Positions 9,350-24,335 are shown, counted from the first letter of the stretch. The stretch is DNA of 49,941 nucleotides from a virus (IMGVR_UViG_2529293060_000008); one strand, 5' to 3'. Made by a program: numbers and translations. The notes: a model not told the origin generated them from the sequence alone.

Positions 9350-10485
9350 AGAGATTCTCGTTTTTTATAAAATTCAACAACTGTATCTGCTTTTACATTT
9401 AGCAGTACGCCTGCTTCCCTTAATGGTAATTGTTGAGACATTGCTTTGGAAATTATTATATTCGTAAGTTTTGGACTGTTACGAACAGGTAATGTGTTAA
9501 AGAAAGAACCACCATTAGATTCTTTTTTGGGCTTATTGTAAGCTTGATCTTTAATTATCTCCAAAGTGTTTCTTTCTATCAAATCTAATTGTAACGCTTT
9601 GATTGCACAAGCGAAATCACTAACCTTAAATAACTTAGAAACCTCTTTTACTCGATAATAATTATTATCGCTGGATGCATTAAGCCAGAAAGATTTGAAG
9701 AGATTATCAGGCATTAAGATTTCAGCAGCAACTTTATTACAAAAAGATTCTATGTTTTTTTCTGTGTCCCACCCAGAGACTCCATCGACTCCAAGCCAAA
9801 GATGAGCCACCTCATGAAATAATGTAAATACCTGCGCAGATAACGCGTCCGAGCTATTTACAAAAATGATCGGAGCAACGCTATCAGATATACAGAAACC
9901 ACGAAACTCTCGCGTGTCAAGTTTTCTTTTATTATTATTACCCACAACACCATTCTTGAAAACTAATACGCCAGTGTCTTCTATTAATTTTGCCACTTTA
10001 GAAAAATAGCTCTCAAAAGTGACATTTTTTATCTCTTTTTGTATATCAAAATGTATTGTGTTTGCTATGTCTGTAGCAACAACCTTATAATTTAATTTTC
10101 TATTAAATTTAAATTTACCAATAAAATCGAGTGGATCATCATTACCATTTTCTCTTAAATAGTCTTTGTACCACTCAAGTTTATATTCTATATCATAGTA
10201 AACATCAAAAAAATCTTTTCCTAACTCACGGCTATTTATAGCTTGCCTTAAGTCAGGGATCTTGGGTTTGGCTGGAGTTGGTGGCGTTTCAAGAAATAAA
10301 AAACCGAAAGGGATTCCTCCAATTTTTGCCAGTTTTTCTGCTGCGGATTTACTTACCACTCCGTTAAGAAATTTATTAATCTTTTTGGGCATGACTTGGT
10401 CAGCAAGAGTTTCGATAGAAACTCCTTGAGAATTTGCTATCCAATCAATCATCTTCCTAGACAATTGAAATTCAACCGCTGCCAT
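9346..10485 (-). CDS. ImmA/IrrE-family Zn-metallopeptidase with N-terminal possible DNA-binding region, putative antitoxin or sensor
   Basis: 379 aa; HExxH in FTLFHEVAHLW followed by ESFCNKVAAEILMP, characteristic of ImmA/IrrE (COG2856) peptidases; AGGTGA Shine-Dalgarno 5 nt before the ATG; AT-rich. Confidence 0.65.
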   Translation of the reverse strand: MAAVEFQLSRKMIDWIANSQGVSIETLADQVMPKKINKFLNGVVSKSAAEKLAKIGGIPFGFLFLETPPTPAKPKIPDLRQAINSRELGKDFFDVYYDIEYKLEWYKDYLRENGNDDPLDFIGKFKFNRKLNYKVVATDIANTIHFDIQKEIKNVTFESYFSKVAKLIEDTGVLVFKNGVVGNNNKRKLDTREFRGFCISDSVAPIIFVNSSDALSAQVFTLFHEVAHLWLGVDGVSGWDTEKNIESFCNKVAAEILMPDNLFKSFWLNASSDNNYYRVKEVSKLFKVSDFACAIKALQLDLIERNTLEIIKDQAYNKPKKESNGGSFFNTLPVRNSPKLTNIIISKAMSQQLPLREAGVLLNVKADTVVEFYKKRESL

Positions 10486-10614
10486 GTTATCACCTAGTTA
10501 AAAAAAACTATTATTCAACAATTATTGTTGTGCACCTGATAGCTAACGTCAAGCCTAATTTATTGCCTTACTACAGTAAGCTGAAAAGCGAAGTGCATAA
10601 TTTTGTTCTGATTT
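10486..10614 (-). promoter_or_regulatory. Intergenic region with candidate promoter and 15-bp near-palindrome CAACAATTATTGTTG (10517..10531)
   Basis: Minus strand shows TTGACG then an AT-rich -10-like segment; inverted repeat CAACAA-tta-TTGTTG could be an autoregulatory operator. Confidence 0.3.
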
Positions 10615-11307
10615 CTACCCATGCTTTCTATATGTCTGCGGCATGCTCCCGATGACTTTCCCGAAGATGAACACGCGGTTCATCTCGTCTTTCTCGATCG
10701 GGTCCCACGGTGAGTAGCTCTTGTTATCAGAGATAACCAGCAGCTTATCCTTCATCATTTGCAGGCGTTTTACATGGGCGGTGTCGTCATACAGAAACGC
10801 ATAGATACCATCACCGTCGAAAGATTTAACCGTGATATCAACGAACAGCAGATCACCTGGTTCGATCGTTCCTGACATGCTGTCACCACGCACGTTAATG
10901 ATGCGGATATTTTCCGCCTTCCTGCCATCGAACATGTGACGAGCATCGTCAAACGAGTATTCAACCGAGCGTAGAACTTCTACAAACTCACGGTTGATTA
11001 CACCCGGCCCGGCACTGACTTCTATATCAAGAACGTCAATTTTGAAGTATTTGGAATGGCTGACAGCAGGCTTCCCTGATTGTTGACCGTCATTTCTCAT
11101 CGGGCCTATGCCTGAAGAGAGCCATTCTGTTCGAACACCCAATGCATTAGCTATTTCAACAATTTTTGTTGAGCCGCGCGCGTTGCCGCTTGTCAGTCTC
11201 CAGATTGTGGGTTGAGCTACGCCAGACGCCTTTGCAAGAGCGCCTTGAGACATTCCAGATTGTTCCATCGCTAGATTTAAGCGATCAGCAAGAGTTTCTT
11301 TTTTCAT
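10615..11307 (-). CDS. cI: CI-like repressor (HTH plus LexA/S24 autopeptidase domain)
   Basis: HTH segment SQGALAKASGVAQPTIWRL; S24 motifs VSAGPG (Ala-Gly cleavage site), GDSM (Ser), VKRL (Lys); ATG at 11307 preceded by TATAAA about 9 nt upstream (near-leaderless); divergent from cro. Confidence 0.85.
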   Translation of the reverse strand: MKKETLADRLNLAMEQSGMSQGALAKASGVAQPTIWRLTSGNARGSTKIVEIANALGVRTEWLSSGIGPMRNDGQQSGKPAVSHSKYFKIDVLDIEVSAGPGVINREFVEVLRSVEYSFDDARHMFDGRKAENIRIINVRGDSMSGTIEPGDLLFVDITVKSFDGDGIYAFLYDDTAHVKRLQMMKDKLLVISDNKSYSPWDPIEKDEMNRVFIFGKVIGSMPQTYRKHG

Positions 11308-11417
11308 AAGTTTTAATTTATACGCTTGCGTATTGATGGTCAAAACACGTTTTGCTATTGCTTGGATTAATACGCATTGCTATTATTCATTCATTGCAAT
11401 ACCAATAGGAATTGATA
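11308..11417. promoter_or_regulatory. Candidate OR with divergent pR / pRM between cI and cro
   Basis: Repeated TTGCTATTG-type motifs (11352.., 11377..); TTGCTT-17 nt-TATTAT on the plus strand upstream of cro; TATAAA on the minus strand upstream of cI; ATTGC...GCAAT inverted repeats. Confidence 0.45.
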
Positions 11418-11645
11418 ATGACAAATCAAACCATTCAACTCGCAATCAGTATTACAGGCAGTCAAAAACGACTGGCAGATCTATGCGGTGTAGCCCAACC
11501 CACAGTTTGGCGTTGGCTACACGGTGGCGGAATTGATGCCCGCTATGTAATGAAAATTGTCTCAGCCACTGGTGGAAAGATTAAACCAGCAGATATTCGT
11601 CCCGACCTCGCACCATTGTTTAACGCGAGTAATTCTGCCGCCTAA
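11418..11645 (+). CDS. cro: Cro-like HTH repressor
   Basis: 75 aa with HTH (SQKRLADLCGVAQPTVWRWLHG); AGGA Shine-Dalgarno 8 nt upstream; divergent from cI. Confidence 0.75.
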   Translation: MTNQTIQLAISITGSQKRLADLCGVAQPTVWRWLHGGGIDARYVMKIVSATGGKIKPADIRPDLAPLFNASNSAA

Positions 11646-11669
11646 ACTGCGGCGTTAACTGATAAGGCA

Positions 11670-12215
11670 ATGACTATGCAACCACTTACATACCAACAGA
11701 CTAGCGGATTTAGCCCGACTGCGGTGATAAATCGTTCTCAAACAAAACAGGTGGCAGGCCACGAAAAAATCCGTGATGCCGTCCGCGCCTGGTCGGCTGT
11801 AGATAATCAGGATGTCGTTGCCACACTCATTGTGAATGAGTATCGGGAGCAGGGCGGCGGCACCATCGATTTCCCTGATGATGTCAGCCGTGCACGCCAG
11901 AAGCTGTTCCGCTTCCTCGATAACAAATTCGATTCTGAAAAATACCGAAATAACGTGCGTGAACTGACCCCGGCAATTCTGGCGGTACTACCGCTGGAAT
12001 ATCGCAGTTACCTGGTTGAGCAGGATAGCTTCATGGCTAGGTTGGCTGAAATGGAAAAGGAACTCAGTGAGGCAAAACAGGCTGTCATTCTCAACGCACC
12101 ACGCCACCAGAAACTGAAGGAAATTAGTGAAGGTATTGTATCGATGTTTCGTGTGGACCCGGATCTGGCTGGTCCATTGATGGCGATGGTTACTACCATG
12201 CTGGGGGCGATATGA
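11670..12215 (+). CDS. YdaT-family protein in the cII position
   Basis: 181 aa; segments NEYREQGGG and LTPAILAVLPLEYR resemble Rac-prophage YdaT as I recall it; sits between cro and O. Confidence 0.45.
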   Translation: MTMQPLTYQQTSGFSPTAVINRSQTKQVAGHEKIRDAVRAWSAVDNQDVVATLIVNEYREQGGGTIDFPDDVSRARQKLFRFLDNKFDSEKYRNNVRELTPAILAVLPLEYRSYLVEQDSFMARLAEMEKELSEAKQAVILNAPRHQKLKEISEGIVSMFRVDPDLAGPLMAMVTTMLGAI

Positions 12216-12301
12216 CAGGTTCAGAAATGGCGAAAGCCGGTCTGCTGGAACAGAACCGACTTTCAGGTGCAAATCGTAACACACTCATTGCGGGAGGAAT
12301 T

Positions 12302-13231
12302 ATGGCAAACACTGCTGAGATATTCAATTTTCCAGTGCCGGATGCGGCACAAAAGGAGCCGCGCGTGGCAGATCTCGATGATGGTTATACGCGCATTGCA
12401 AATGAGTTGCTGGAAGCTGTGATGCTGGCCGGATTAACACAGCACCAGCTTCTGGTCTTCCTGGCTGTCATGCGCAAAACATATGGCTTTAATAAAAAAC
12501 TGGATTGGGTGAGCAACGAGCAACTGTCCGGATTGACCGGGATATTACCGCACAAGTGTTCTGCTGCAAAAAGTGTTCTGGTAAAGCGTGGGATTTTGAT
12601 TCAGAGCGGGCGGAATATCGGTATTAATAATGTGGTCAGTGAATGGTCAACATTACCCGAATCAGGTAAGAAAAATAAAGTTTACCTGAAAGAGGTAAAT
12701 TTACCTGAATCAGGTAAGAAAAGTTTACCCAAATCAGGTAAAGGCGTTTACCCGAATCAGGTAAACACAAAAGACAAACTAACAAAAGACAATATAAAAC
12801 CTTTTTCGTCCGAGAATTCTGGCGAATCCTCTGACCAACCAGAAAACGATCTTCCTGTGGTGAAACCAGATGCTGCAATTCAGAGCGGCAGCAAGTGGGG
12901 GACAGCAGAAGACCTGACCGCCGCAGAGTGGATGTTTGACATGGTGAAGACCATCGCACCATCAGCCAGAAAACCGAATTTTGCAGGGTGGGCTAACGAT
13001 ATCCGCCTGATGCGTGAACGTGACGGACGTAACCACCGCGACATGTGCGTGCTTTTCCGCTGGGCATGCCAGGACAACTTCTGGTCCGGTAACGTGCTAA
13101 GTCCGGCCAAACTCCGCGACAAGTGGACCCAACTCGAAATCAACCGTAACAAGCAACAGGCAGGCATGATAGCCAGCAAACCAAAACTCGACCTGACAAA
13201 CACTGACTGGATTTACGGGGTGGATTTATGA
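12302..13231 (+). CDS. O: Replication initiator O
   Basis: N-terminus MANTAEIFNF...VADLDDGYTRIANELLEA aligns with lambda O (MTNTAKILNF...VADLDDGYARL); GGAGG before the ATG at 12302; iterons inside the gene; the track ORF extends to 12212, which I treat as upstream read-through. Confidence 0.85.
   Translation: MANTAEIFNFPVPDAAQKEPRVADLDDGYTRIANELLEAVMLAGLTQHQLLVFLAVMRKTYGFNKKLDWVSNEQLSGLTGILPHKCSAAKSVLVKRGILIQSGRNIGINNVVSEWSTLPESGKKNKVYLKEVNLPESGKKSLPKSGKGVYPNQVNTKDKLTKDNIKPFSSENSGESSDQPENDLPVVKPDAAIQSGSKWGTAEDLTAAEWMFDMVKTIAPSARKPNFAGWANDIRLMRERDGRNHRDMCVLFRWACQDNFWSGNVLSPAKLRDKWTQLEINRNKQQAGMIASKPKLDLTNTDWIYGVDL
12654..12800. repeat. Replication origin: four palindromic iterons TTACC(C/T)(G/A)AATCAGGTAA plus AT-rich tract, inside O
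   Basis: Iterons at 12654, 12701, 12725, 12748 and a degenerate copy TTTACCTgaaagAGGTAAA; followed by aaaagacaaactaacaaaagacaatataaaac; same layout as ori-lambda. Confidence 0.8.
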
Positions 13232-13929
13232 AAAACATCGCCGCACAGATGGTTAACTTTGACCGTGAGCAGATGCGTCGGATCGCCAACAACATGCCGG
13301 AACAGTACGACGAAAAGCCGCAGGTACAGCAGGTAGCGCAGATCATCAACGGTGTGTTCAGCCAGTTACTGGCAACTTTCCCGGCGAGCCTGGCTAACCG
13401 TGACCAGAATGAACTGAACGAAATCCGCCGCCAGTGGGTGCTGGCTTTTCGGGAAAACGGGATCACCACAATGGAACAGGTTAACGCTGGAATGCGCGTA
13501 GCCCGTCGGCAGAATCGACCATTCCTGCCATCACCCGGGCAGTTTGTCGCCTGGTGCCGGGAAGAAGCATCCGTTAACGCCGGGCTGCCAAACGCCAGCG
13601 AGCTGGTTGATATGGTTTACGAGTATTGCCGGAAGCGTGGCCTTTATCCGGATGCAGAGTCTTATCCATGGAAATCAAACGCGCACTACTGGTTGGTTAC
13701 CAACCTGTATCAGAACATGCGGGCCAATGCGCTGACTGATGCGGAATTACGGCGCAAGGCTGCCGATGAACTGACTTGTATGACCGCGCGAATTAATCGT
13801 GGTGAGGCGATACCTGAACCAGTAAAACAACTTCCTGTCATGGGCGGTAGACCACTTAACCGGGCTCAGGCTCTGGCGAAGATCGCAGAAATCAAAGCTA
13901 AGTTCGGACTGAAAGGAGCCAGTGTATGA
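13228..13929 (+). CDS. P: Replication protein P (DnaB loader)
   Basis: 233 aa, near-identical to lambda P as recalled; ATGA overlap with O. Confidence 0.95.
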   Translation: MKNIAAQMVNFDREQMRRIANNMPEQYDEKPQVQQVAQIINGVFSQLLATFPASLANRDQNELNEIRRQWVLAFRENGITTMEQVNAGMRVARRQNRPFLPSPGQFVAWCREEASVNAGLPNASELVDMVYEYCRKRGLYPDAESYPWKSNAHYWLVTNLYQNMRANALTDAELRRKAADELTCMTARINRGEAIPEPVKQLPVMGGRPLNRAQALAKIAEIKAKFGLKGASV

Positions 13930-14219
13930 CAGGCAAAGAGGCAATTCTTCACTACCTGAAAACGCACCGGACTTTCTGCGCGCCGGATGTAGCTGCGGCA
14001 ACAGGCGTGACTGTAACCAGCATCAATCAGGCAGCAGCCAAAATGGCACGGGCAGGAATCCTGGTCGTTGATCGCAAGGTCTGGCGAACGGTGTATTACC
14101 GGTTCGCTACCAGGGAGGAGCGGGAAGGAAAGGTGAGCACGAACCTGATTTTCAAGGAGTGTCGCCAGAGTGCCGTGATGAAACGGGTATTGATGTTTTG
14201 GGGGAGGGGAGGGGTATAA
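13926..14219 (+). CDS. ren: Ren
   Basis: 97 aa (MTGKEAILHYLKTHRTFCAPDVAAATGVTVTSINQAAAKMARAG...) matching lambda Ren; overlaps the P stop. Confidence 0.9.
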   Translation: MTGKEAILHYLKTHRTFCAPDVAAATGVTVTSINQAAAKMARAGILVVDRKVWRTVYYRFATREEREGKVSTNLIFKECRQSAVMKRVLMFWGRGGV

Positions 14220-14507
14220 GCGAAACGTTATGAGTGTGTGGGTATTCGTGCCATTGCGATGTGGTAGAGAGTGCTGAGGGCGTCATGGTTGTGTTGCGAA
14301 AACTACGTTGCACTTGAGCAGGATCTTGCAGAATTTGAGCGCGAGTTCCGTGTTGCTGATGCGACTATACCCTCGATGTAGAGGAACTTAATTAGCTGAT
14401 TGTAATTCAATATGCCTACTAAGACCGGTTGGGTATGAACTAGTAAAGGCTGCAAAATCCTATAGAGTGTTAACGCAACCAAAAACGTTAAGCACGGAGA
14501 AAAAAAT

Positions 14508-15037
14508 ATGGATCCTAAATTACTGTATGCCACGTTTAAACGAAATGACGCACCAGCTTGGCGCTGCCCGAACTGTATGAATGAAACACTGGAGATTGTC
14601 GCTGATAGTTTTGTAGAAACTGATTCAAGCGCAACAACTCAGTTTAGAGATGAAGTATGGTTTGATGAGGAAATGTCGGGAGGAGTATTCAGTTGCGTGC
14701 TGCGCTGTACCCGCCAAGCCTGCCAGGAGAAGGTTGCTTTGTCTGGGCAGGTTGTTGCTGTAGAATGCTTCAATGACGAAATGACGGAGCGTTGGTATGT
14801 TTCTGGTTTCCGTCCTAAGTATTTCTATCCACCACTTCCTCTATTCCTGTTTCCTGAAAAGTGCCCTGAAGATATAGCTGATCTCTTGGCGGAAGTATCA
14901 GCTCTGATCCCCTCGCACCCAGCTTCAGCGGTGAACACCATGAGAACCATACTGGAGATGATGCTTGATAGTCTTGATGTACCAAGAGAGAAAACAGTTA
15001 AAGGCAAGATAATACGTCTTTCTACGCATGAAAGAAT
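14508..15037 (+). pseudogene. 5' part of a zinc-ribbon protein gene interrupted by the IS66-family element
   Basis: ORF with CPNCMN...CVLRCTRQAC (two CxxC pairs); reading frame stops at a TAA created by the IS left end; GGAG Shine-Dalgarno 7 nt upstream; inverted repeat TTAACG-N10-CGTTAA at 14470..14491. Confidence 0.6.
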
Positions 15038-15067
15038 GTAAGCGTCAACGGAGCACCGTATTGACGC

Positions 15068-16681
15068 TTATTTATTGGTGAGTACTACGTTCCATGGCAG
15101 GAGTTCATCAACTCGGTTGGAAGGCCATTCCGGCAGTACGCTCAGGATATGGCGCAGATACGCTTCCGGATCGATACCGTTCAGACGGCAGGTGCCGATC
15201 AGCCCGTACAACAGTGCTCCACGCTCGCCGCCGTGATCGCTGCCAAAGAACATAAAGTTTTTCTTTCCGAGACAGACTGCACGAAGCGCTCTTTCCGCAG
15301 CATTATTATCCGCCTCCGCCAGACCGTCATCACTGTAATAACAGAGGGCATCCCACTGATTCAGTACATAGCTGAACGCTTCGCCCAGTCTGGATTTTTT
15401 CGACAGCGTACAATTCTTCTCCACCATCCATTCATGCAGCGACGTCAGTAACACTTTGCTTCGCTGCTGCCTGACGGCAAGACGCTCTGACTCCGGTAAT
15501 CCCCGTATTTCATCCTCGATGGCGTACAGTTCACTGATTCGCTTCAGTGCTTCTTCTGCCGTCGCACTTTTGCTGCTGATGTATACATCGTGGATTTTTC
15601 GCCGGGCATGGGCCCAGCACGCAACTTCTGTCAGTGCACCACCTTCACGTTCTGCACTGAACAACCTGTCGTAACCTGTGAACGCATCCGCCTGCAGGAT
15701 ACCCCGGAAGGGGCGGAGGTGTTGCTCCGGGTGTTTCCCCTGCCGGTTCGGCGAGTACGCGAACCAGACCGCTGGAGGAGATGACGAACCCACATTGCGA
15801 TCATCCCGGACATACGTCCAGATACGCCCTGTTTTCGCCTTTTTCTGACCCGGTGCCAGTACCTTTACCGGTGTGTCATCAGTGTGAATCTTGCGGGTGT
15901 TCATTACATAACGGTACAGGGCATCATTCACCGGTGTCATTAACTGGCAGCACGCGTCAACCCAGTTGGAGAGTAAGGCCCGGCTCAGTTCGACACCCTG
16001 GCGGGCAAAGATTTCACTCTGACGATACAGTGGCAGATGTTCGCAGTATTTTCCCGTTAACACGCGGGCAAGTAATCCGGGGCCCGCGATACCACGCTCT
16101 ATCGGGCGGGACGGCGCCGGTGCTTCAACAATACAGTCACATTTTGTACAGGCTTTTTTTACCCGTTCTGTGCGGATCACTTTCAGGGCACTGCTCACCA
16201 GTTCCAGCTGTTCAGCGCTGACTTCCCCCAGATAATCCAGCTCACCGCCACACTCCGGGCAACAGCTTTCTTCTGGCTCCAGGCGGTGTATTTCACGGGG
16301 AAGGTGTGCCGGTAACGGACGACGATGGCGCGACTGTCGCAACTGGCGGGGAACCTGAGGATCGTCTTCCCGCCCACTGTAACGATCGCTGTCCTGTTCA
16401 CGTTGTTTCAGCAGAGCCTCAGCCAGTTCAACTTCACGACGCAGTTTTTCAGAACGGGTACCGAACAGCATCCGGCGCAGTTTTTCTATCTGAGCCCGCA
16501 GATGTTCTATTTCCCGTTCATCTTCTTCGATCTTTTCTTCGGCACGTGTCAGTGCAGAGCGCAGGAAGGCTTCCGTCTCTTCAACCAGACTCAGTTGCTG
16601 GTCTTTCTGACGGAGGGCTTCAGCCTGCTCAGAGAGCAACCTTTCCAGCTCTGCGATGCGAATGAGGTATTTCTGACTCAT
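15068..16681 (-). CDS. tnpC: IS66-family transposase (TnpC)
   Basis: 537 aa with N-terminal coiled coil and Cys-rich segment (CCPECGGEL...CTKCDC), typical of IS66 transposases. Confidence 0.8.
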   Translation of the reverse strand: MSQKYLIRIAELERLLSEQAEALRQKDQQLSLVEETEAFLRSALTRAEEKIEEDEREIEHLRAQIEKLRRMLFGTRSEKLRREVELAEALLKQREQDSDRYSGREDDPQVPRQLRQSRHRRPLPAHLPREIHRLEPEESCCPECGGELDYLGEVSAEQLELVSSALKVIRTERVKKACTKCDCIVEAPAPSRPIERGIAGPGLLARVLTGKYCEHLPLYRQSEIFARQGVELSRALLSNWVDACCQLMTPVNDALYRYVMNTRKIHTDDTPVKVLAPGQKKAKTGRIWTYVRDDRNVGSSSPPAVWFAYSPNRQGKHPEQHLRPFRGILQADAFTGYDRLFSAEREGGALTEVACWAHARRKIHDVYISSKSATAEEALKRISELYAIEDEIRGLPESERLAVRQQRSKVLLTSLHEWMVEKNCTLSKKSRLGEAFSYVLNQWDALCYYSDDGLAEADNNAAERALRAVCLGKKNFMFFGSDHGGERGALLYGLIGTCRLNGIDPEAYLRHILSVLPEWPSNRVDELLPWNVVLTNK

Positions 16682-16711
16682 GACCGTTTTTATAATGCGG
16701 TCAGGAGTTTT

Positions 16712-17062
16712 TTACAACATTGTCAGTGAGTTACGGCTGGATGTTTTTGGCTGACGCCAGTCCAGCTTATCGAGGAGCATTGCCAGTTGCGAGCGGGTAA
16801 TGGATACCTTGCCGTCACGTACCGCAGGCCAGATAAACTGGCCTTCCTCCAGGCGTTTGGTGAACAGGCACAGACCATCAGCATCAGCCCAAAGAATTTT
16901 GACGGTGTCACCCCGTCGGCCACGGAAGATAAACAGGTGACCGGAGAAGGGATTATCATTCAGCACATGTTGTACCTGTTCTCCCAGTCCGTTGAAGGAT
17001 TTACGCATATCGGTAACGCCGGCAACGAGCCAGATACGGGTACCTGATGGGAGTGAGATCAT
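16712..17062 (-). CDS. tnpB: IS66 Orf2 (TnpB)
   Basis: 116-aa ORF, middle gene of the IS66 three-gene unit (MISLPSGTRIWLVAGVTDMRKSFNGL...). Confidence 0.75.
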   Translation of the reverse strand: MISLPSGTRIWLVAGVTDMRKSFNGLGEQVQHVLNDNPFSGHLFIFRGRRGDTVKILWADADGLCLFTKRLEEGQFIWPAVRDGKVSITRSQLAMLLDKLDWRQPKTSSRNSLTML

Positions 17063-17484
17063 CTTCCCCTCCCGGTCAGTTCACGGATCAACACTGTGAG
17101 CAGCTCTGGCGATGGATTTTCCAGCGTCATGTTACCGTGACGGAATTCCACCTTGCAGGAACTGGCACTGACTCTGGTCTGAGTGGAAGTGGATAAAGAC
17201 GGCGCAATGGCCGCCACAGGTTCTTTCTGCTCATCCGGCGTTATTTCTACAGGTAATAATTCAACGCCAGTGTCAGAAGAGGTCGTTACCGGAAGACGCC
17301 GCGAAACACGCCCTTCGTTCTGCCAGAGCCTGAGCCATTTGAAAATAACATTATCATTGACGCCATTTTCACGTGCAATCTGTGCAACACAAGCTCCAGG
17401 TTGTGATGCCAGTTCCACCATACGAAGTTTGAATTCATTCGAATAGTTTTTACGAGGTTCTTTTCGCCAGTCCTGTAATTCCAT
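17059..17484 (-). CDS. tnpA: IS66 Orf1 (TnpA, HTH)
   Basis: 141-aa ORF with HTH-like segment (ACVAQIARENGVNDNVIFKW); first gene of the IS66 unit; ATGA overlap with Orf2. Confidence 0.75.
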   Translation of the reverse strand: MELQDWRKEPRKNYSNEFKLRMVELASQPGACVAQIARENGVNDNVIFKWLRLWQNEGRVSRRLPVTTSSDTGVELLPVEITPDEQKEPVAAIAPSLSTSTQTRVSASSCKVEFRHGNMTLENPSPELLTVLIRELTGRGR

Positions 17485-17569
17485 ACTTAGATGTCCGTCT
17501 ATATCAGATGGGCGTCTAAGTTACCAATTCTCGTCTGATGGCTACATACGGCGGTCAGTTTACGCTTAC

Positions 17570-17799
17570 GAAAGAATCACAAATTATTCAGATAAACTGG
17601 GACCAAATAAAGATGCATTCATGGCGTTAAAGTGGTTGGGGAATCACGGCAGTCATGGAGGGATTAAAGTCACAAGGTCCTCTATTAATGATGCCTGCAT
17701 TCTCATTGGTCATTTGATTGACTTCTTATTCTTAGAAAGCCCGGATGTAACTATTCATATTGAACGGATAAACAACGTGTATGCACCCAAAAAGGAGTA
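17570..17799 (+). pseudogene. 3' part of the zinc-ribbon gene split by IS66
   Basis: Frame continues in register across the duplicated GAAAGAAT (…HER | ITNYSDKLGPNKDAFMALKWLGNHGSHGG… stop near 17799); the intact protein would be about 250 aa. Confidence 0.55.
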
Positions 17800-18056
17800 A
17801 AACGTAACGCCATGTCGAAGCGGAATATTGCCGCTAAAACACAAGAAGAGCGCGAGAAGGTTAACGTTGACCTTGCTGTCTCCTGAGTTACCTACAAAGA
17901 GCGCCTTAATATACCGGTTATTGCCGAAGCGGTGATGCGTGAGCAGCCTGAGCATTTGCGGGACTATTTTTTGGAGCGGCCACGACATTACCGCGAGCAG
18001 AGCATCGCGCTGCCCAAGGCATCCGCTCCTCGACATCTTAAGCAGGAAGGTGAAAA

Positions 18057-18539
18057 ATGATAAGTGCAGAAGGACTGCAGCGGTTACTTAATTTATCGGA
18101 GCCTCCATCTGATGAACTGATTGATGTTTATCTTCAATTCTGCATGATTTTTCCTAGGGTCGAGCAAAGTTTTTTTGGTGGCTTTGCTAAGGGGGAAGAC
18201 AGTTTAAATTATGCGCGAACGTTACTTGACGCCGGGATAAAGGTGCCCAACGAACTTTTTCACGATTTTAAGCAGAGATACATTTTGAATGGGGATGCGC
18301 AGGAAAGACTTGACGCCCTCTGTGTCGGTCGAGAGAGAGATAGGCGGGGAATAGTTAATGGACTTCAAAATGACGCAGCAACAGATCTAAACACCATGTC
18401 TACAGTATTAAAGATAGTTATAAGGATAAGAAATAACCTTTTCCACGGAAATAAAGACGCTTATCTTTTTGTTGATTCTCAAGAGCAAGCGCAACTATTG
18501 AGGTGGTGCGTGAGATTTCTCCAAGGATTATTAAATTAA
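18057..18539 (+). CDS. Hypothetical protein with C-terminal Rx4H (HEPN-like) motif
   Basis: 160 aa; ATG preceded by GGAAGG; C-terminal [15 protein letters not shown] contains Rx4H as in HEPN nucleases; family not confirmed. Confidence 0.5.
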
Positions 18540-18728
18540 TCTACCTTTGATTTTCCATAATCAACCAGCAATAATAATGTCACCGGAGCCTGAACAACAT
18601 CGGTGACTTCTGCGCTAAACGGGGACGTTTATGCGCACATACAATCTAAACTCTCTTTTGCTGTCACAGATGCAGAAATGCACCTGCGATTTTTTGCATC
18701 CAGCGTTTGACCTCTGCGGAGGTGAATC

Positions 18729-19184
18729 GTGAACCTCCTACAAGATGGCATCAAATTGCATCGTGGTAACTTCACCGCTATCGGTCAGCAGATCCAGCCT
18801 TATCTGGAGGACGGCAAATGCTTTCGCATGGTGCTTAAACCGTGGCGCGAGAGACGCAGTCTTTCCCAGAATGCACTCAGCCACATGTGGTACAGCGAAA
18901 TCAGTGAATACCTCATCAGCAGGGGTAAAACGTTCGCCACTCCACCTTGGGTAAAAGATGCTCTCAAACACACTTATCTCGGTTATGAAACCAAAGAACT
19001 GGTTGATGTCGTAACCGGTGAAATCACCACCATTCAGTCATTACGTCATACCTCCGATCTCGATACCGGAGAGATGTATGTCTTCCTGTGTAAGGTTGAA
19101 GCCTGGGCGATGAATATTGGCTGCCACCTGACTATTCCGCAGAGCTGCGAGTTCCAGCTGCTCCGCGACAAGCAGGAGGCGTAA
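18729..19184 (+). CDS. ninB: NinB-family recombination protein (YbcN-like)
   Basis: 151 aa, GTG start with GGAGG upstream; [17 protein letters not shown] resembles the NinB motif RSLDQN...LW; followed by ninE as in DLP12. Confidence 0.6.
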
Positions 19185-19354
19185 TGGCTACACCGCTTAT
19201 TCGTGTCATGAACGGACACATCTACAGAGTATCTAATCGTCGTAAGCGTAAGCCTGAGCTGAAGCCATCCGAAATACCAACACTGCTCGGATATACCGCT
19301 AGCCTGGTTGATAAAAAATGGTTGCGACTGGCAGCAAGGAGGAATCATGGCTGA
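19184..19354 (+). CDS. ninE: NinE
   Basis: 56 aa ([56 protein letters not shown]); ATG overlaps the ninB stop (TAATG). Confidence 0.6.
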   Translation: MATPLIRVMNGHIYRVSNRRKRKPELKPSEIPTLLGYTASLVDKKWLRLAARRNHG

Positions 19355-19637
19355 TTTGAGAAAAGCAGCGCGTGGTCGGGAATGCCAGGTAAGAATCCCT
19401 GGCGTATGTAATGGCAATTCTGAGACGTCTGTACTGGCACATATCCGGCTGGCTGGATTGTGCGGTACCGGTATCAAACCGCCAGACCTGATTGCCACCA
19501 TTGCATGTTCTGCCTGCCACGACGAAATCGACCGCCGCACGCATTTTGTTGACGCTGGATATGCAAAAGAATGCGCGCTGGAAGGTATGGCGAGAACGCA
19601 GGTTATCTGGCTGAAAGAGGGGGTAATTAAGGCGTGA
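19347..19637 (+). CDS. YbcO-like protein (DUF1364-like)
   Basis: 96 aa from [23 protein letters not shown]... with AAGGAGG upstream; Cys/His-rich; DLP12-like gene order. Confidence 0.55.
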
Positions 19638-19996
19638 ATACTTACCACATCACACTACCCTGGCCGCCGAGCAATAACCGCTACTACCGCCATAATCGAG
19701 GGCGCACGCACATCAGCGCAGAAGGGCAGGCATACCGCGATAACGTCGCCCGAATCATTAAAGGCTCAATGCTGGATATCGGTCTGGCTATGCCTGTGAA
19801 AATCCGCATTGAGTGCCACATGCCGGATCGCCGTCGCCGTGACCTGGATAATCTGCAAAAAGCCGCTTTTGACGCACTCACTAAAGCAGGTTTCTGGCTG
19901 GATGATGAGCTGGTCGTTGATTACCGCGTTGTGAAGATGCCTGTTACCAAAGGTGGGAAGCTGGAACTGACCATCACTGAACTGGGAGATGAATGA
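19634..19996 (+). CDS. rusA: RusA Holliday-junction resolvase
   Basis: 120 aa ([42 protein letters not shown]...[25 protein letters not shown]) matching RusA. Confidence 0.85.
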
Positions 19997-20133
19997 TGTT
20001 TGAGTCTTATATGGCAGAACTTCTTCGCCACCGCTGGATGCGCCTGCGCTTATATCGTTTCCCCAGTTCTGTTTTGACCGATTACCGAATACTGAGGAAT
20101 TACGCCAAAACCCTGACAGGAGCAGGAGTATGA
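19993..20133 (+). CDS. ylcG: YlcG-like small protein
   Basis: 46-aa ORF overlapping the rusA stop ([26 protein letters not shown]...), in the DLP12-like position before Q. Confidence 0.45.
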
Positions 20134-20218
20134 AGTCAGAGATAACAATCAACTAATACTGTTTTATTGATTTTTGCTTGTAATTGGCGTTCTGGTCTGA
20201 TTTTTGTGGAGTAAGTTG

Positions 20219-20602
20219 ATGCGTGATATTCAGATGGTTCTTGAGCGTTGGGGAGCGTGGGCGGCTAATAATCATGAAGATGTGACCTGGTCGTCCATTG
20301 CCGCCGGTTTTAAGGGATTAATTACTTCAAAAGTAAAATCTCGCCCGCAATGTTGTGACGATGACGCTATGATCATTTGCGGGTGCATGGCCCGTCTGAA
20401 AAAGAACAACAGCGATTTGCACGATTTATTAGTAGATTATTATGTAGTCGGTATGACATTCATGTCACTGGCAGGTAAGCATTGCTGCTCTGATGGTTAT
20501 ATCGGGAAAAGGTTACAGAAGGCTGAGGGCATAATTGAAGGGATGTTAATGGCATTAGATATCCGGTTAGAGATGGATATCGTTGTTAATAACTCTAATT
20601 AA
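20219..20602 (+). CDS. Q: Late antiterminator Q (QuuD-like)
   Basis: 127 aa from [34 protein letters not shown]... with Cys-rich segment; lies just upstream of the lysis region. Confidence 0.7.
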
Positions 20603-20634
20603 TATGCCAATTGTTTACTAAAAATTATTAAAAA

Positions 20635-20772
20635 TGGGGCGTTGAGACGCCCCCAAAAATAAAGGGTAATATATAACAGAAGGTTTATATAGTTAGAAGC
20701 AAGGTTGTGCTTCTAAAGGAAGTGGCTTGAGGGAGCCACTTATATGTTGGGGAGGCAATGCCTCCCGCAACA
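20635..20772 (-). terminator. Cluster of stem-loops between Q and the porin gene
   Basis: GGGGCGTtgAGACGCCCC (20635..20653) followed on the minus strand by ATTTTTAATAATTTTT; further hairpins GAAGTGGCTtgagggAGCCACTT and GGGAGGCAatgCCTCCC just after the porin stop. Confidence 0.4.
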
Positions 20773-20791
20773 TATCTTTTTCGTAATCAGA

Positions 20792-21889
20792 TTAGAACTG
20801 GTAAACCAGACCTACAGCAACGATGTCATCAGTGCTTACACCGAGTGCTTTAGTGAAGTCATTTTTGTCAAGCAGGTTGATTTTGTAATCAACGAAAGTA
20901 GACATATTTTTGTTGAAGTAATAGGTTGCACCTACATCAACATATTTGACTAAGTCCTGATCGCCCCATACTCCAAGATCCTTACCTTTAGATTGCAGGT
21001 AAGCAACGGACGGACGCAGACCGAAATCGAACTGATATTGTGCAACAGCTTCGAAGTTTTGGGCTTTATTAGCAACGAAGTGATCAGCAAATACAGTCAT
21101 ATTCTGGGTTTCAGAATAGGTAGTGGCCAGGTAAATGTTGTTAGCGTCATATTTCAGACCTGCGGCCCAAACTTCTGCATTTTTACCGGAAGCAAATACT
21201 TCAGGAAGAACTTTCCCTGCATTAACTTGAGTGTCGGTACGATCAGATTTTGCATAAGTTGCACCGATACCGAATCCTTCGTATTCATAGGTAGCAGAGA
21301 AACCGAAGCCATCACCGTTACCTTCGGTGTAGTTATCGAAATCGCTACGATCGTTTTTGCCTTGGTACTGAGCAGCAAAGTTCAGACCATCAACCAGGCC
21401 AAAGAAGTCGTTGTTACGATAGGTTGCAACACCAGTGGTGCGACCAGTCATGAACACATCTGTTTGGGTCCAGGTATCGCCACCGAATTCTGGCAGAACG
21501 TCAGTCCACGCACCGATGTCGTATGCTACACCGTAGTTACGGCCGTAATCGATTGAGCCGTAGTCACCGAATTTCAGGCCTGCAAATGCAAGACGGGTTT
21601 TGTCTTTGGAGGAACCTTGAGATTCAGCGCGGTTGCCTTTGAATTCATATTCCCACTGACCGAAACCAGTCAGTTGATCGTTGATTTGGGTTTCACCTTT
21701 GAAGCCAAGACGGGCATAAGTAGTATCACCATCATCTGCATCATTAGAGGAGAAGTAGTGCTTAGCATTAACTTTCCCGTACAGATCCAGCTTGTTACTG
21801 TCTTTATTATAAATTTCAGCTGCCTGAGCAGACATCGCCATCAGTACTGATGCAGCTACAGCAGAAATTGCCACTGTTAATTTTTTCAT
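20792..21889 (-). CDS. nmpC: Outer-membrane general porin (NmpC / Lc / OmpC family), lysogenic-conversion gene
   Basis: 365 aa with signal peptide ([23 protein letters not shown]), AEIYNKD...GKVNAKHYF start and C-terminal ...VGLVYQF, typical of enterobacterial porins; antisense to the late operon as nmpC is in DLP12. Confidence 0.85.
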
Positions 21890-22477
21890 CGTGAGCCCTT
21901 TTTTTTGAACTATTATTAAAAAATGATGTCACTGCGCGATAAATATTCATCTAATCAATGTGATTATTTCAAGATGTAAGTTTTAGTTTCTCATTTAATT
22001 TGTGAAGTAGATCTCTATTTTTATCTGAACTTTTTCTATCGAAACCTATTTATGGCTCTTATTTGAACAAAAATAAACCTATTAGCTAATTTATATTAAT
22101 GGCTGTTATTTATGGGGGTTCTATAATTCGGCAGTTTAATTTAAATCAACTAAAAATAACGTCTGAAATTATTTATTGGTTATTTGTTGAGGTTTTCTTA
22201 TGTATTTGTGGTGGAGTTTTGAACACTCGGTAGCATTCTCATAAATATCATTCAGTGGTTTACGTACGTAAAAAATTGGTTATGCTGTTAAGAGTGGTTA
22301 CTTCGTCACACAGCTTAAACCCGCCGTCGAGCTGGTTTTTCCATTTTTTGAGTCTCGATATTAGCTGATAACTCAATACCTGAGTTATTCACTGACTCCG
22401 AGTCTGTTACGTTTCTGCTTTTTTGCGATACGTTGTATTCCCTCAATTTACACCCGCTTTGTCTGCGAGGTGGGGTT

Positions 22478-22693
22478 ATGAAATCCATGGATAAGTTAAC
22501 AACGGGTGTCGCCTATGGCACCTCAGCAGGTAGTGCCGGTTACTGGTTTTTACAGCTGCTCGATAAAGTCACGCCCTCACAGTGGGCAGCAATAGGTGTG
22601 CTGGGTAGCCTGGTATTTGGCCTGCTGACGTACCTGACAAACCTTTATTTCAAGATTAAAGAAGATAAGCGCAAGGCTGCGAGAGGTGAATAA
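22478..22693 (+). CDS. S: Holin (phage-21 S-type pinholin)
   Basis: 71 aa [71 protein letters not shown], closely resembling S21; GAGG upstream; dual-start Met pattern (M1/M4). Confidence 0.85.
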
Positions 22694-23190
22694 TGCCTCC
22701 ATCATTACGAAAAGCCGTTGCTGCTGCTATTGGTGGCGGAGCAATTGCTATAGCATCAGTGTTAATCACTGGCCCAAGTGGTAACGATGGTCTGGAAGGT
22801 GTCAGCTACATACCATACAAAGATATTGTTGGTGTATGGACTGTATGTCACGGGCATACAGGAAAAGACATCATGCTCGGTAAAACGTATACCAAAGCAG
22901 AATGCAAAGCCCTCCTGAATAAAGACCTTGCCACGGTCGCCAGACAAATTAACCCGTACATAAAAGTTGATATACCGGAAACAACGCGCGGCGCTCTTTA
23001 CTTGTTCGTTTACAACGTGGGCGCTGGCAATTTCAGAACATCGACGCTTCTTCGCAAAATAAACCAGGGCGATATCAAAGGCGCATGTGATCAGCTACGT
23101 CGCTGGACATATGCTGGCGGTAAGCAATGGAAAGGTCTCATGACTCGTCGTGAGATTGAGCGTGAAATCTGTTTGTGGGGTCAGCAATGA
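22693..23190 (+). CDS. R: SAR endolysin (lysozyme)
   Basis: 165 aa with N-terminal hydrophobic signal-anchor segment ([18 protein letters not shown]) and lysozyme-like core; overlaps the holin stop. Confidence 0.85.
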
Positions 23191-23648
23191 ACAGAGTAAC
23201 CGCGATTATCTCCGCTCTGGTTATCTGCATCATCGTTTGCCTGTCATGGGCTGTTAATCATTACCGTGATAACGCCATTACCTACAAAGCCCAGCGCGAC
23301 AAAAATGCCAGAGAACTGAAGCTGGCGAACGCGGCAATTACTGACATGCAGATGCGTCAGCGTGATGTTGCTGCGCTCGATGCAAAATACACGAAGGAGT
23401 TAGCTGATGCGAAAGCTGAAAATGATGCTCTGCGTGATGATGTTGCCGCTGGTCGTCGTCGGTTGCACATCAAAGCAGTCTGTCAGTCAGTGCGTGAAGC
23501 CACCACCGCCTCCGGCGTGGATAATGCAGCCTCCCCCCGACTGGCAGACACCGCTGAACGGGATTATTTCACCCTCAGAGAGAGGCTGATCACTATGCAA
23601 AAACAACTGGAAGGAACCCAGAAGTATATTAATGAGCAGTGCAGATAG
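23187..23648 (+). CDS. Rz: i-spanin Rz
   Basis: 153 aa with N-terminal transmembrane segment and coiled coil; matches lambda Rz. Confidence 0.85.
23407..23589 (+). CDS. Rz1: o-spanin Rz1 (lipoprotein) embedded in Rz in the +1 frame
   Basis: 60 aa [24 protein letters not shown]...PPPPPAW, lipobox VVGC and proline-rich, as lambda Rz1. Confidence 0.85.
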
Positions 23649-23679
23649 AGCTGCCCATATCGATGGGCAACTCATGCAA

Positions 23680-23973
23680 TTATTGTGAGCAATACACACG
23701 CGCTTCCAGCGGAGTATAAATGCCTAAAGTAATAAAACCGAGAAATCCATTTACGAATGTTTGCTGGGTTTCTGTTTTAACAACATTTTCTGCGCCGCCA
23801 CAAATTTTGGCTGCATCAACAGTTTTCTCCTGTCCAATTCCCGAAACGAAGAAGTGATGGGTGATGGTTTCCTTTGGTGTTACTGCTGTCGGTTTGTTTC
23901 CAACAGTAAACGTCTGTTGAGCACATCCTGTAATAAGCATTGCCAGAGCGGCAGAAAACAACATTTTTTTCAT
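23680..23973 (-). CDS. bor: Bor lipoprotein (serum-resistance, lysogenic conversion)
   Basis: 97 aa from MKKMLFSAALAMLITGCAQQTFTV... matching lambda Bor; lipobox ITGC. Confidence 0.9.
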   Translation of the reverse strand: MKKMLFSAALAMLITGCAQQTFTVGNKPTAVTPKETITHHFFVSGIGQEKTVDAAKICGGAENVVKTETQQTFVNGFLGFITLGIYTPLEARVYCSQ

Positions 23974-24335
23974 CTTATTATCCTGCATTGTTAAAAACGG
24001 CAGAATCCTATGTGACAACAATTAAACGATAGTTAAATGGATTGATGAAAATTAAAACTATATAGGTGTACGCTCAGACTATTGGAGGAAGTTGGGGACA
24101 CTCAGAATCCTGTGGAATGAAATAAACCGGTCTATCCGTCTATTACCCTTTTAGCTGCGCTGTATCGTCGCCGTATTCCCGCATTAACCATGACCGTAGC
24201 CCGACGGGGAATTCCTTCTGCGTGAGTGTGCGGGAATAATCAAAAACGATGCACACCGGGTTTTACTGTGCTGACAGACGCAGGGTTACCCTCATAGTCG
24301 CTTTTCCGGTGCGATGGTGGAAGAAACCGGGATGT

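Follow-up and report, generated by a model that had tools for sequence, protein, structure and literature searches.

Within the viral sequence IMGVR_UViG_2529293060_000008, a stretch of 49,941 nucleotides referred to here as the window, positions 18057-18539 of the plus strand hold an intact open reading frame (ORF) of 160 codons with an ATG start and a TAA stop, designated ORF160. A Shine-Dalgarno-like GGAAGG sequence was read at 18045-18050 (+), 6 nt before the ATG, which confirms the reading frame and ribosome-binding site of the original prediction, in which ORF160 was put forward as a candidate HEPN RNase. Positions 10001-24000 of the window are 99.9-100% identical to a lambdoid prophage of Escherichia coli IAI1, apart from an insertion sequence (IS), and ORF160 is WP_000622057.1 in this strain. 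The gene order in the IAI1 prophage is O-/P-like replication genes, a winged helix-turn-helix gene, the gene for a 250-aa DUF4145 protein, a pseudogene for the theta subunit of DNA polymerase III and WP_000622057.1, followed by a 33-aa ORF, ybcN, ninE, ybcO, rusA, ylcG and quuD. In the window, the theta homologue (HolE/HOT) lies at 17812-18060 (+), is interrupted by an in-frame TGA at 17884-17886 (codon 25) and is annotated in IAI1 with 'internal stop'; its own stop overlaps the ORF160 start via ATGA. Downstream, ybcN (NinB-like, 18729-19184, +) begins the conserved right flank of the slot that ORF160 occupies.

ORF160 is a real conserved gene of a large uncharacterised family, for which we use the working name FAM. 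It is matched over residues 1-160 of 160 by phrog_27260 (E 1.8e-93), which is annotated 'unknown function', and family scans against Pfam, NCBIfam and PADLOC (PADLOC-DB 2023) gave no match for it. A word-indexed search of 5.8 billion proteins returned 8 close relatives only, with 74-99% identity, from Klebsiella, Salmonella and Enterobacter. HMMER, run exhaustively with a profile against 1.84 billion representatives, yielded 174 proteins at E <= 1e-3, nearly all of them single-domain proteins of 155-180 aa, and the family amounts to at least 174 clusters at 50% identity. None of these profile matches carries a Pfam domain or a name beyond 'hypothetical protein', a Pfam scan of the longer, possibly fused members revealed no informative fusion domain, and no mention of the accession numbers or the PHROG identifier was found in the literature. 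Pattern-seeded scans located members on 236 GTDB species-genome stretches and at 54 IMG/VR loci; the GTDB members belong mostly to Alpha-, Beta- and Gammaproteobacteria, with some in Bacteroidota, Acidobacteriota and Planctomycetota and one in an archaeal metagenome-assembled genome (MAG). Of 5426 complete E. coli genomes, 56 carry ORF160 itself, each as one chromosomal copy, and none of the genomes of isolated phages in INPHARED contains it. The ratio of nonsynonymous to synonymous substitutions (dN/dS) between ORF160 and the Salmonella allele is 0.14, indicating that ORF160 is under purifying selection. Three of 14 near-identical IMG/VR copies with 98-99% identity (L106, L107 and L110) are inactivated, two by K45* and one by a frameshift, which could reflect decay in cryptic prophages or a cost of carrying the gene.

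The Rx4H motif that had drawn attention to the C-terminal part of the protein is present as R125-x4-H130, as read in residues 121-136. ORF160 possesses two histidines only, and H130 is preceded by both R125 (Rx4H) and R123 (Rx6H) within the motif R-x-R-N-N-x-F-H-G-x-K (codons 123-133, 18423-18455, +), a putative catalytic site comprising R125, N126 and H130. A bare Rx4H arose in 15% of ORF160 shuffles and R[NDH]x3H in 2.4%, and Rx4H has a density of 0.27 per 160 residues in the window ORFs of at least 120 aa. Since Rx4H alone could be due to chance, conservation was needed to give the motif weight. In an alignment of 123 homologues with 16-80% identity to ORF160, R123, R125, N127, H130 and K133 are invariant, and F28, E36, R74, Y75, L88, F129 and G131 are kept in at least 90%. 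In a wider set of 167 sequences with less than 60% identity, R123, R125, N127, H130 and K133 are kept in 166-167 of the 167; R123-x6-H130 is likewise invariant across the family, and residue 126, directly after R125, is N in 151 and H in 11. The family consensus reads [YFI]-R-[LFY]-R-N-N-L-F-H-G-x-K-[W]. Upstream of the motif, the conserved acidic residue E36 (codon 18162-18164, +) is E in 165 and D in 2 of the same sequences, and in the near-invariant polar pair R74-Y75 (18276-18281, +) R74 is found in 166 and Y75 in 162, with F in the other 5. E36, R74 and Y75 were absent from every search pattern used, and their conservation therefore does not depend on these patterns. The invariance across 123 homologues, together with the conservation of E36, R74 and Y75, indicates that the motif is more than a chance occurrence.

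The fold of ORF160 was predicted with AlphaFold2. With 9 close homologues the model was unusable, with a predicted local distance difference test (pLDDT) score of 43; with 123 sequences an all-alpha model was obtained with a pLDDT of 94.1 and a predicted TM-score (pTM) of 0.90, and its helices span residues 4-11, 19-39, 46-58, 65-77, 81-88, 93-104, 110-129, 131-138 and 141-159. The motif forms the C-terminal end of helix 110-129 and H130 sits at a helix break, followed by the short helix 131-138 and then helix 141-159. Covariation was analysed by mean-field direct coupling analysis (DCA) of 267 sequences (effective number, Meff, 190), in which variable columns were used and couplings between invariant columns were disregarded as pseudocount artefacts. 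Couplings 32-49 and 39-52 connect helices 19-39 and 46-58 as a first hairpin, couplings 117-154, 114-158 and 128-143 connect helices 110-129 and 141-159 as a second, and the packing between the hairpins is seen in couplings 31-152, 28-128, 32-129, 46-119 and 55-154; the helix pairs 19-39/110-129 and 19-39/141-159 are also coupled. The three helices at 65-104, one of which bears R74-Y75, are inserted between the second and third core helices; the end of the E36-bearing helix 19-39 adjoins the motif (couplings 32-126, 33-134 and 32-129). The model and the covariation point to two antiparallel hairpins that pack into a four-helix core, the motif being placed where core helix 3 ends.

This predicted layout looks like the published HEPN architecture. 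According to the definition of the superfamily (Anantharaman et al. 2013, PMC3710099), HEPN domains have a conserved Rx4-6H motif with a polar N/D/H directly after R; it is placed where core helix 3 ends and the loop to helix 4, an often kinked helix, begins. The four core helices run up and down as two alpha-hairpins, helices 2 and 3 being separated by an insert, and near the motif, upstream of it, there is a further conserved acidic residue, typically as E-x3-[KR] in helix 2 (PMC3710099). HEPN activity is that of a metal-independent endoRNase which depends on R and H, and HEPN families are mutually undetectable by sequence (PMC3710099). ORF160 has the required spacing and polar residue in R125-N126-N127-L128-F129-H130, and its motif occupies the end of core helix 3 in the AlphaFold2 model. 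E36 belongs to core helix 1, and the R/K after it stands at +2 (52%) and not at +4, in contrast to the E-x3-[KR] in helix 2 that is typical of HEPN.

Several results of the profile and structure searches proposed with the original prediction weigh against a firm HEPN assignment. No significant profile similarity to an established HEPN family was obtained with Pfam, NCBIfam or PADLOC, and Foldseek searches with the AlphaFold2 model gave nothing below E = 1 in the PDB and nothing in BFVD. RiboL-PSP-HEPN (PF18735) was matched below threshold in only 2 of the 123 members (best E 1e-4), and the scores of PF18735 and PF18737, 13.6-14.8 bits, stay well under gathering thresholds of 26.8-28.4. The profile-profile comparison by hhalign, which covered one HEPN family, aligned only the motif helix with a 28-sequence pEK499_p136 HEPN profile (probability 1.2%, P = 0.042). 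In addition, hhalign against the single sequences of pEK499_p136, DUF4145 and a neighbouring EHRNSLLH protein (described below) was not significant, and querying the PDB by sequence, either with ORF160 alone or with the profile of 123 sequences, returned nothing relevant. On the other side, scans of members and subfamily consensus sequences against curated hidden Markov models (HMMs) gave sporadic sub-threshold matches that recur in HEPN families. PF18735 was matched by one subfamily consensus with E 0.063 over 115 residues (46-160 to model 44-187); the match to MAE_28990-HEPN (PF18737) had E 0.033 over 120 residues (61-181 to model 82-200), and further matches concerned Apea-HEPN (0.14), Cas13a (1e-4), and CARF-HEPN and Csm6 (0.01-0.05). 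PF18735 and PF18737, the best of these, span most of the domain and have the RNxxxH core in common with FAM. The recurrence of such matches, the layout and the motif were counted for HEPN. Because neither a solved structure nor a curated profile matched significantly, membership of FAM in the HEPN superfamily is probable rather than demonstrated.

The slot that ORF160 occupies was delimited by comparison with phages whose FAM alleles are only 25-37% identical to ORF160 and in which the adjacency to theta persists. Nucleotide homology between the IAI1 prophage and those phages stops 25-55 bp before the ORF160 start, within the 3' end of theta, and picks up again 1-7 bp after the ORF160 stop, running through ybcN. 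In the same phage pairs FAM is 25-37%, theta 52-76% and NinB/YbcN 64-98% identical, and the G+C content is 40.8% in ORF160 versus 50-52% in the theta and ybcN flanks. These homology borders, the divergence of the alleles and the low G+C content indicate that ORF160 is a cassette with sharp borders that can be exchanged. The slot is filled in other lambdoid phages either by alleles of 25-37% identity or by unrelated cargo, and more distant phage alleles are located elsewhere, e.g. near the integrase gene or after Q. Upstream of the 77% identical Salmonella allele, in a nin region, theta (PF06440) is intact with 82 aa and overlaps the allele by 4 bp; many IMG/VR relatives likewise have an intact theta, and FAM is intact where theta is a pseudogene, as here, or a fragment, as elsewhere. 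Theta homologues are found on at least 392 viral stretches; in the best 80 theta loci of IMG/VR, FAM is never found downstream, and the position directly 3' of theta is taken by small ORFs (about 40-216 aa) of at least 20 unrelated families, many with an ATGA overlap (L167-L246; L001 5946-6490). With so many other cargo families behind it, the theta 3' end marks a general cargo hotspot. Theta was also considered as an antitoxin or partner of FAM and rejected, given the pseudogenes and fragments beside intact FAM genes and the many other cargo genes. Upstream of FAM, an E. coli A3024 prophage (L002 3083-4716) carries a phosphoribosyltransferase (PRTase)-like and NADAR pair in the place of the DUF4145 gene, and a metagenomic contig (L018 2309-3847) carries a Pribosyltran and DprA/SLOG pair.

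In bacterial genomes FAM is found in a different setting. Neighbour clustering of 150 loci revealed no universal partner gene and no cluster common beyond close relatives, the most widespread non-enterobacterial neighbour cluster being present in 10 of them. The recurrent tight and co-directional bacterial neighbours are defence genes, separated from FAM by gaps of 2-30 nt, and bacterial FAM homologues are never found beside theta. In Flavobacteriaceae bacterium AU392 (L011 1511-5475), the genes for DUF6161, a 75-aa ORF, Cap15_CD_rec, mCpol, FAM (2-nt gap) and RAMA follow one another; this tight operon is an mCpol/Cap15 pair resembling Panoptes, expanded by two genes, and fusions of mCpol genes to HEPN RNases or common operons with them have been described. 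In Gemmatimonas and Acidobacteriota MAGs (L055 2183-7000 and L074), an AAA_13 ABC-type ATPase of 863 aa, FAM of 174 aa and a Piwi long prokaryotic Argonaute (pAgo) of 730 aa are separated by gaps of 7 nt and 11 nt, with FAM 11 nt upstream of pAgo; this association was seen in 2 of 80 bacterial loci. FAM also adjoins CAP12/Pycsar-type TIR proteins at 12-29 nt. In Pseudomonas veronii, P. migulae and P. plecoglossicida (L020/L021/L036) it lies between such a TIR protein of 284 aa and a protein of 183-200 aa that has no Pfam match and bears its own EHRNSLLH (Rx4H) motif, and that may be a second HEPN-like protein in this cluster. Further loci combine FAM with HsdS (gap 9 nt), Schlafen AlbA_2 and RhuM, with MmeI restriction-modification (R-M) and Mrr_cat genes, with a PRTase and SLOG/DprA pair and MmeI-type R-M beside PhD/ParE, with Mrr, pEK499_p136-HEPN and BrnT/BrnA, with T5orf172/MUG113, and elsewhere with an AAA_21/SMC-like ATPase. 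At a metagenomic, Bacteroidota-like locus (L012/L013 4001-6173), FAM stands 16 nt ahead of the gene for a 165-aa protein that lacks a Pfam match, after which a trypsin-like protease is encoded; together they may constitute a three-gene system. With these defence neighbours, FAM is found in the same settings as the described HEPN nucleases PrrC, Agap-HEPN and mCpol-linked HEPN.

Upstream of theta, the window differs from IAI1 by an IS66-family element (ISEc23-like) of 2532 bp at 15038-17569 (-), which contains tnpA (17059-17484), tnpB (16712-17062) and a transposase gene (15068-16681) and is flanked by an 8-bp target duplication, GAAAGAAT, at 15030-15037 and 17570-17577. This insertion is present in no complete E. 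coli genome of the collection. It cuts a zinc-ribbon/DUF4145 gene (PF13643, phrog_1305) into a 5' part at 14508-15037 (+) and a 3' part at 17570-17800 (+), whose PF13643 matches cover the model at 5-47 and 59-83 (16.6 and 19.8 bits); each fragment is below threshold because the gene is split by the IS, and the intact 250-aa version in IAI1 is annotated as a DUF4145 domain-containing protein. The disrupted gene ends at 17800, 257 bp before the ORF160 ATG, in line with the earlier description of a zinc-ribbon gene disrupted by IS66 about 250 bp away. DUF4145 is listed in the HEPN superfamily and is known fused to zinc ribbons (PMC3710099), so that this gene is itself a candidate nuclease, the second at the locus and independent of ORF160, and not an antitoxin. 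Sequence comparison found no similarity between ORF160 and DUF4145, and a search for DUF4145 relatives in IMG/VR returned near-identical copies only. Rfam identified no RNA family in 13500-21000. Further downstream, an OmpC/NmpC-like porin gene of 365 aa (20792-21889, -) is located between the Q antiterminator gene (quuD) and the lysis genes, a classical lambdoid moron position; in IAI1, iss (serum survival) follows the lysis cassette.

Among the known systems, HepS (HEPN Solo; STM14_3211, PDB 9OIK) from the Salmonella prophage Gifsy-1, published in 2026 (PMC13043305), is closely analogous. In its default state HepS is inactive; the phage tail-tip protein J activates it allosterically, and it cleaves tRNA anticodon loops (PMC13043305); its gene lies between the replication genes and Q and is often prophage-borne (PMC13043305). 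Both HepS and FAM are small single HEPN-motif proteins without a partner gene or conserved neighbours, encoded in the accessory region of lambdoid prophages, and ORF160 has each of these properties: it is solo, prophage-borne, placed in the lambdoid accessory region and devoid of a conserved partner. The motifs differ, R100-H105 in HepS versus R125-H130 with the additional invariant R123, N127 and K133 in FAM. FAM has no detectable sequence or fold match to any PDB entry searched, the presence of HepS in the searched PDB copies being unchecked, and no HepS ORF is annotated or evident in the nin region of the LT2 Gifsy-1 record. PrrC/RloC (PMC3710099) resemble FAM as HEPN-type motif proteins in or beside type I R-M operons and near AAA_13/ABC ATPases. 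They combine the ATPase and HEPN in one polypeptide, whereas FAM is a separate protein of ~165 aa with an ATPase neighbour in some loci only. The Agap-HEPN RNase of AmAgo (PMC11162769) is encoded directly upstream of a long pAgo, as FAM is in L055/L074. Agap is larger (catalytic R262/H267, with an extra domain) and its gene overlaps the pAgo gene, whereas FAM is much smaller; the two are set side by side by arrangement, not by homology. HEPN-MNT (type VII) toxins such as HI0074 differ from FAM in that no conserved adjacent antitoxin and no MNT was seen near FAM in the 150 loci.

FAM proteins are thus all-alpha and single-domain, conserved and under constraint, and share an invariant basic/His site; the gene moves in the manner of a cassette and is embedded in defence loci. 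Given its place as exchangeable cargo in a prophage hotspot and the defence operons that hold its bacterial homologues, ORF160 is probably a stand-alone anti-phage nuclease. The specific explanation that we favour, with a probability of roughly 0.5, is that ORF160 is a stand-alone single-domain member of an uncatalogued, highly divergent HEPN-type family, acting as a solo defence RNase analogous to HepS; as a whole, the original prediction is partly supported. If ORF160 works as HEPN enzymes do, a dimer or oligomer would pair two R-x4-H motifs into a metal-independent endoRNase site, whose products would end in a 2',3'-cyclic phosphate and a 5'-OH. Like HepS, the enzyme would be off by default and switched on by a phage-derived cue, and once active it would cut tRNA, mRNA or rRNA and bring about abortive infection. 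One protein would then act as both sensor and effector, and the highly divergent alleles in one slot may represent different trigger specificities. An antitoxin would not be needed, as suggested by the persistence of FAM without the DUF4145 gene or theta.

Two of the alternatives to such a solo RNase give ORF160 a partner at its own locus. It was suggested earlier that ORF160 might once have been partnered with the disrupted zinc-ribbon gene, and as the toxin of a two-gene toxin-antitoxin or abortive infection pair it would depend on the DUF4145 protein. Both genes are on one strand, separated by 257 bp, and another phage lineage (L133), whose FAM is 30-36% identical, again shows the order DUF4145-theta-FAM. 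In this lineage (L133/L162), the DUF4145 gene is 94% identical while FAM has been replaced, which argues against co-variation; DUF4145 stands beside FAM in only 11 of the 150 loci, FAM also occurs behind the PRTase-like and NADAR pair or other genes, and it is intact and constrained where the IS destroys the DUF4145 gene. Moreover, a putative nuclease of the HEPN clan is not of an antitoxin type. The partner hypothesis was rejected on account of the rare co-occurrence and the missing co-variation, and such a pair is extremely improbable. A replication accessory that works with the adjacent theta homologue, e.g. by modulating Pol III epsilon/theta in phage replication, is hardly more credible and very unlikely, even though theta or its remnant lies directly beside FAM, often with a stop/start overlap, in ~30 of the 54 viral loci and in 6 of 14 divergent FAM clusters. 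FAM stays intact next to decayed theta genes in many loci, the best theta loci carry other ORF families in its place, and the bacterial homologues keep company with defence genes.

The other two alternatives concern the side on which ORF160 acts and the class of its fold. As a phage-side counter-defence or host-takeover enzyme, ORF160 would employ its R/H chemistry during the lytic cycle, either cutting host RNAs or degrading cyclic-oligonucleotide immune signals in the manner of ring-nuclease-like anti-CBASS, anti-type III or anti-Panoptes proteins. The gene is part of the nin (delayed-early) operon, and the promoter/terminator scan stayed at chance level, with no promoter above chance upstream of ORF160; expression may therefore occur in lysogens or come from pR only, which keeps a phage-side role a serious rival. 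Homologues adjoin the nucleotide-signalling genes mCpol/Cap15, CAP12-TIR and PRTase/SLOG, and the hypervariability of the alleles would be in keeping with an arms race whether ORF160 serves the host or the phage. We nevertheless consider this role unlikely, because the bacterial copies are co-directional and tightly spaced (2-30 nt) inside defence operons (HsdS, MmeI, pAgo, mCpol), which is the position of an effector or accessory, and because PHROG, BFVD and PDB searches found no similarity to known anti-defence families. A non-HEPN all-alpha fold with a basic site of its own (E36, R74, Y75, R123, R125, N127, H130, K133), either a new enzyme or a phosphate/nucleotide-binding module in which Rx4H is convergent, is doubtful but somewhat better placed. 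A confident model without a significant structural neighbour in PDB or BFVD, the lack of any significant HEPN profile, and a motif that is longer and decorated differently than in described HEPN families all speak for it. The position of the motif and the polar residue after R nevertheless fit the HEPN definition, as may the predicted topology and the nearby conserved acidic residue, the weak matches fall preferentially on HEPN families, and mutual undetectability by sequence is usual among these families.

Whatever its fold class, the family is new. Under the favoured explanation of a solo HEPN-type RNase, lambdoid prophages would have in ORF160 a second defence protein of the solo HEPN type, with a sequence unrelated to that of HepS, and ORF160 would represent a widespread family unrecognised by Pfam, NCBIfam and PADLOC-DB 2023. 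More speculatively, and at well below even odds, FAM could define a new class of one-protein sensor-effector immune nuclease, in which a frozen core (E36, R74, Y75 and R-x-R-N-N-x-F-H-G-x-K) is kept while the rest is diversified for invader cues, and which is plugged into the theta/ninB slot, type I/MmeI R-M, pAgo (possibly as a guide-generating RNase), mCpol/Cap15 and CAP12-TIR loci; or else it could be a new non-HEPN fold with convergent R/H chemistry. That family members turn up repeatedly next to pAgo, mCpol/Cap15, CAP12-TIR and R-M genes suggests a module that can be reused as an effector or accessory. The theta 3' end hotspot could be mined for further systems, and the 25-37% identical alleles in one delimited slot would provide a natural series for mapping trigger specificity.
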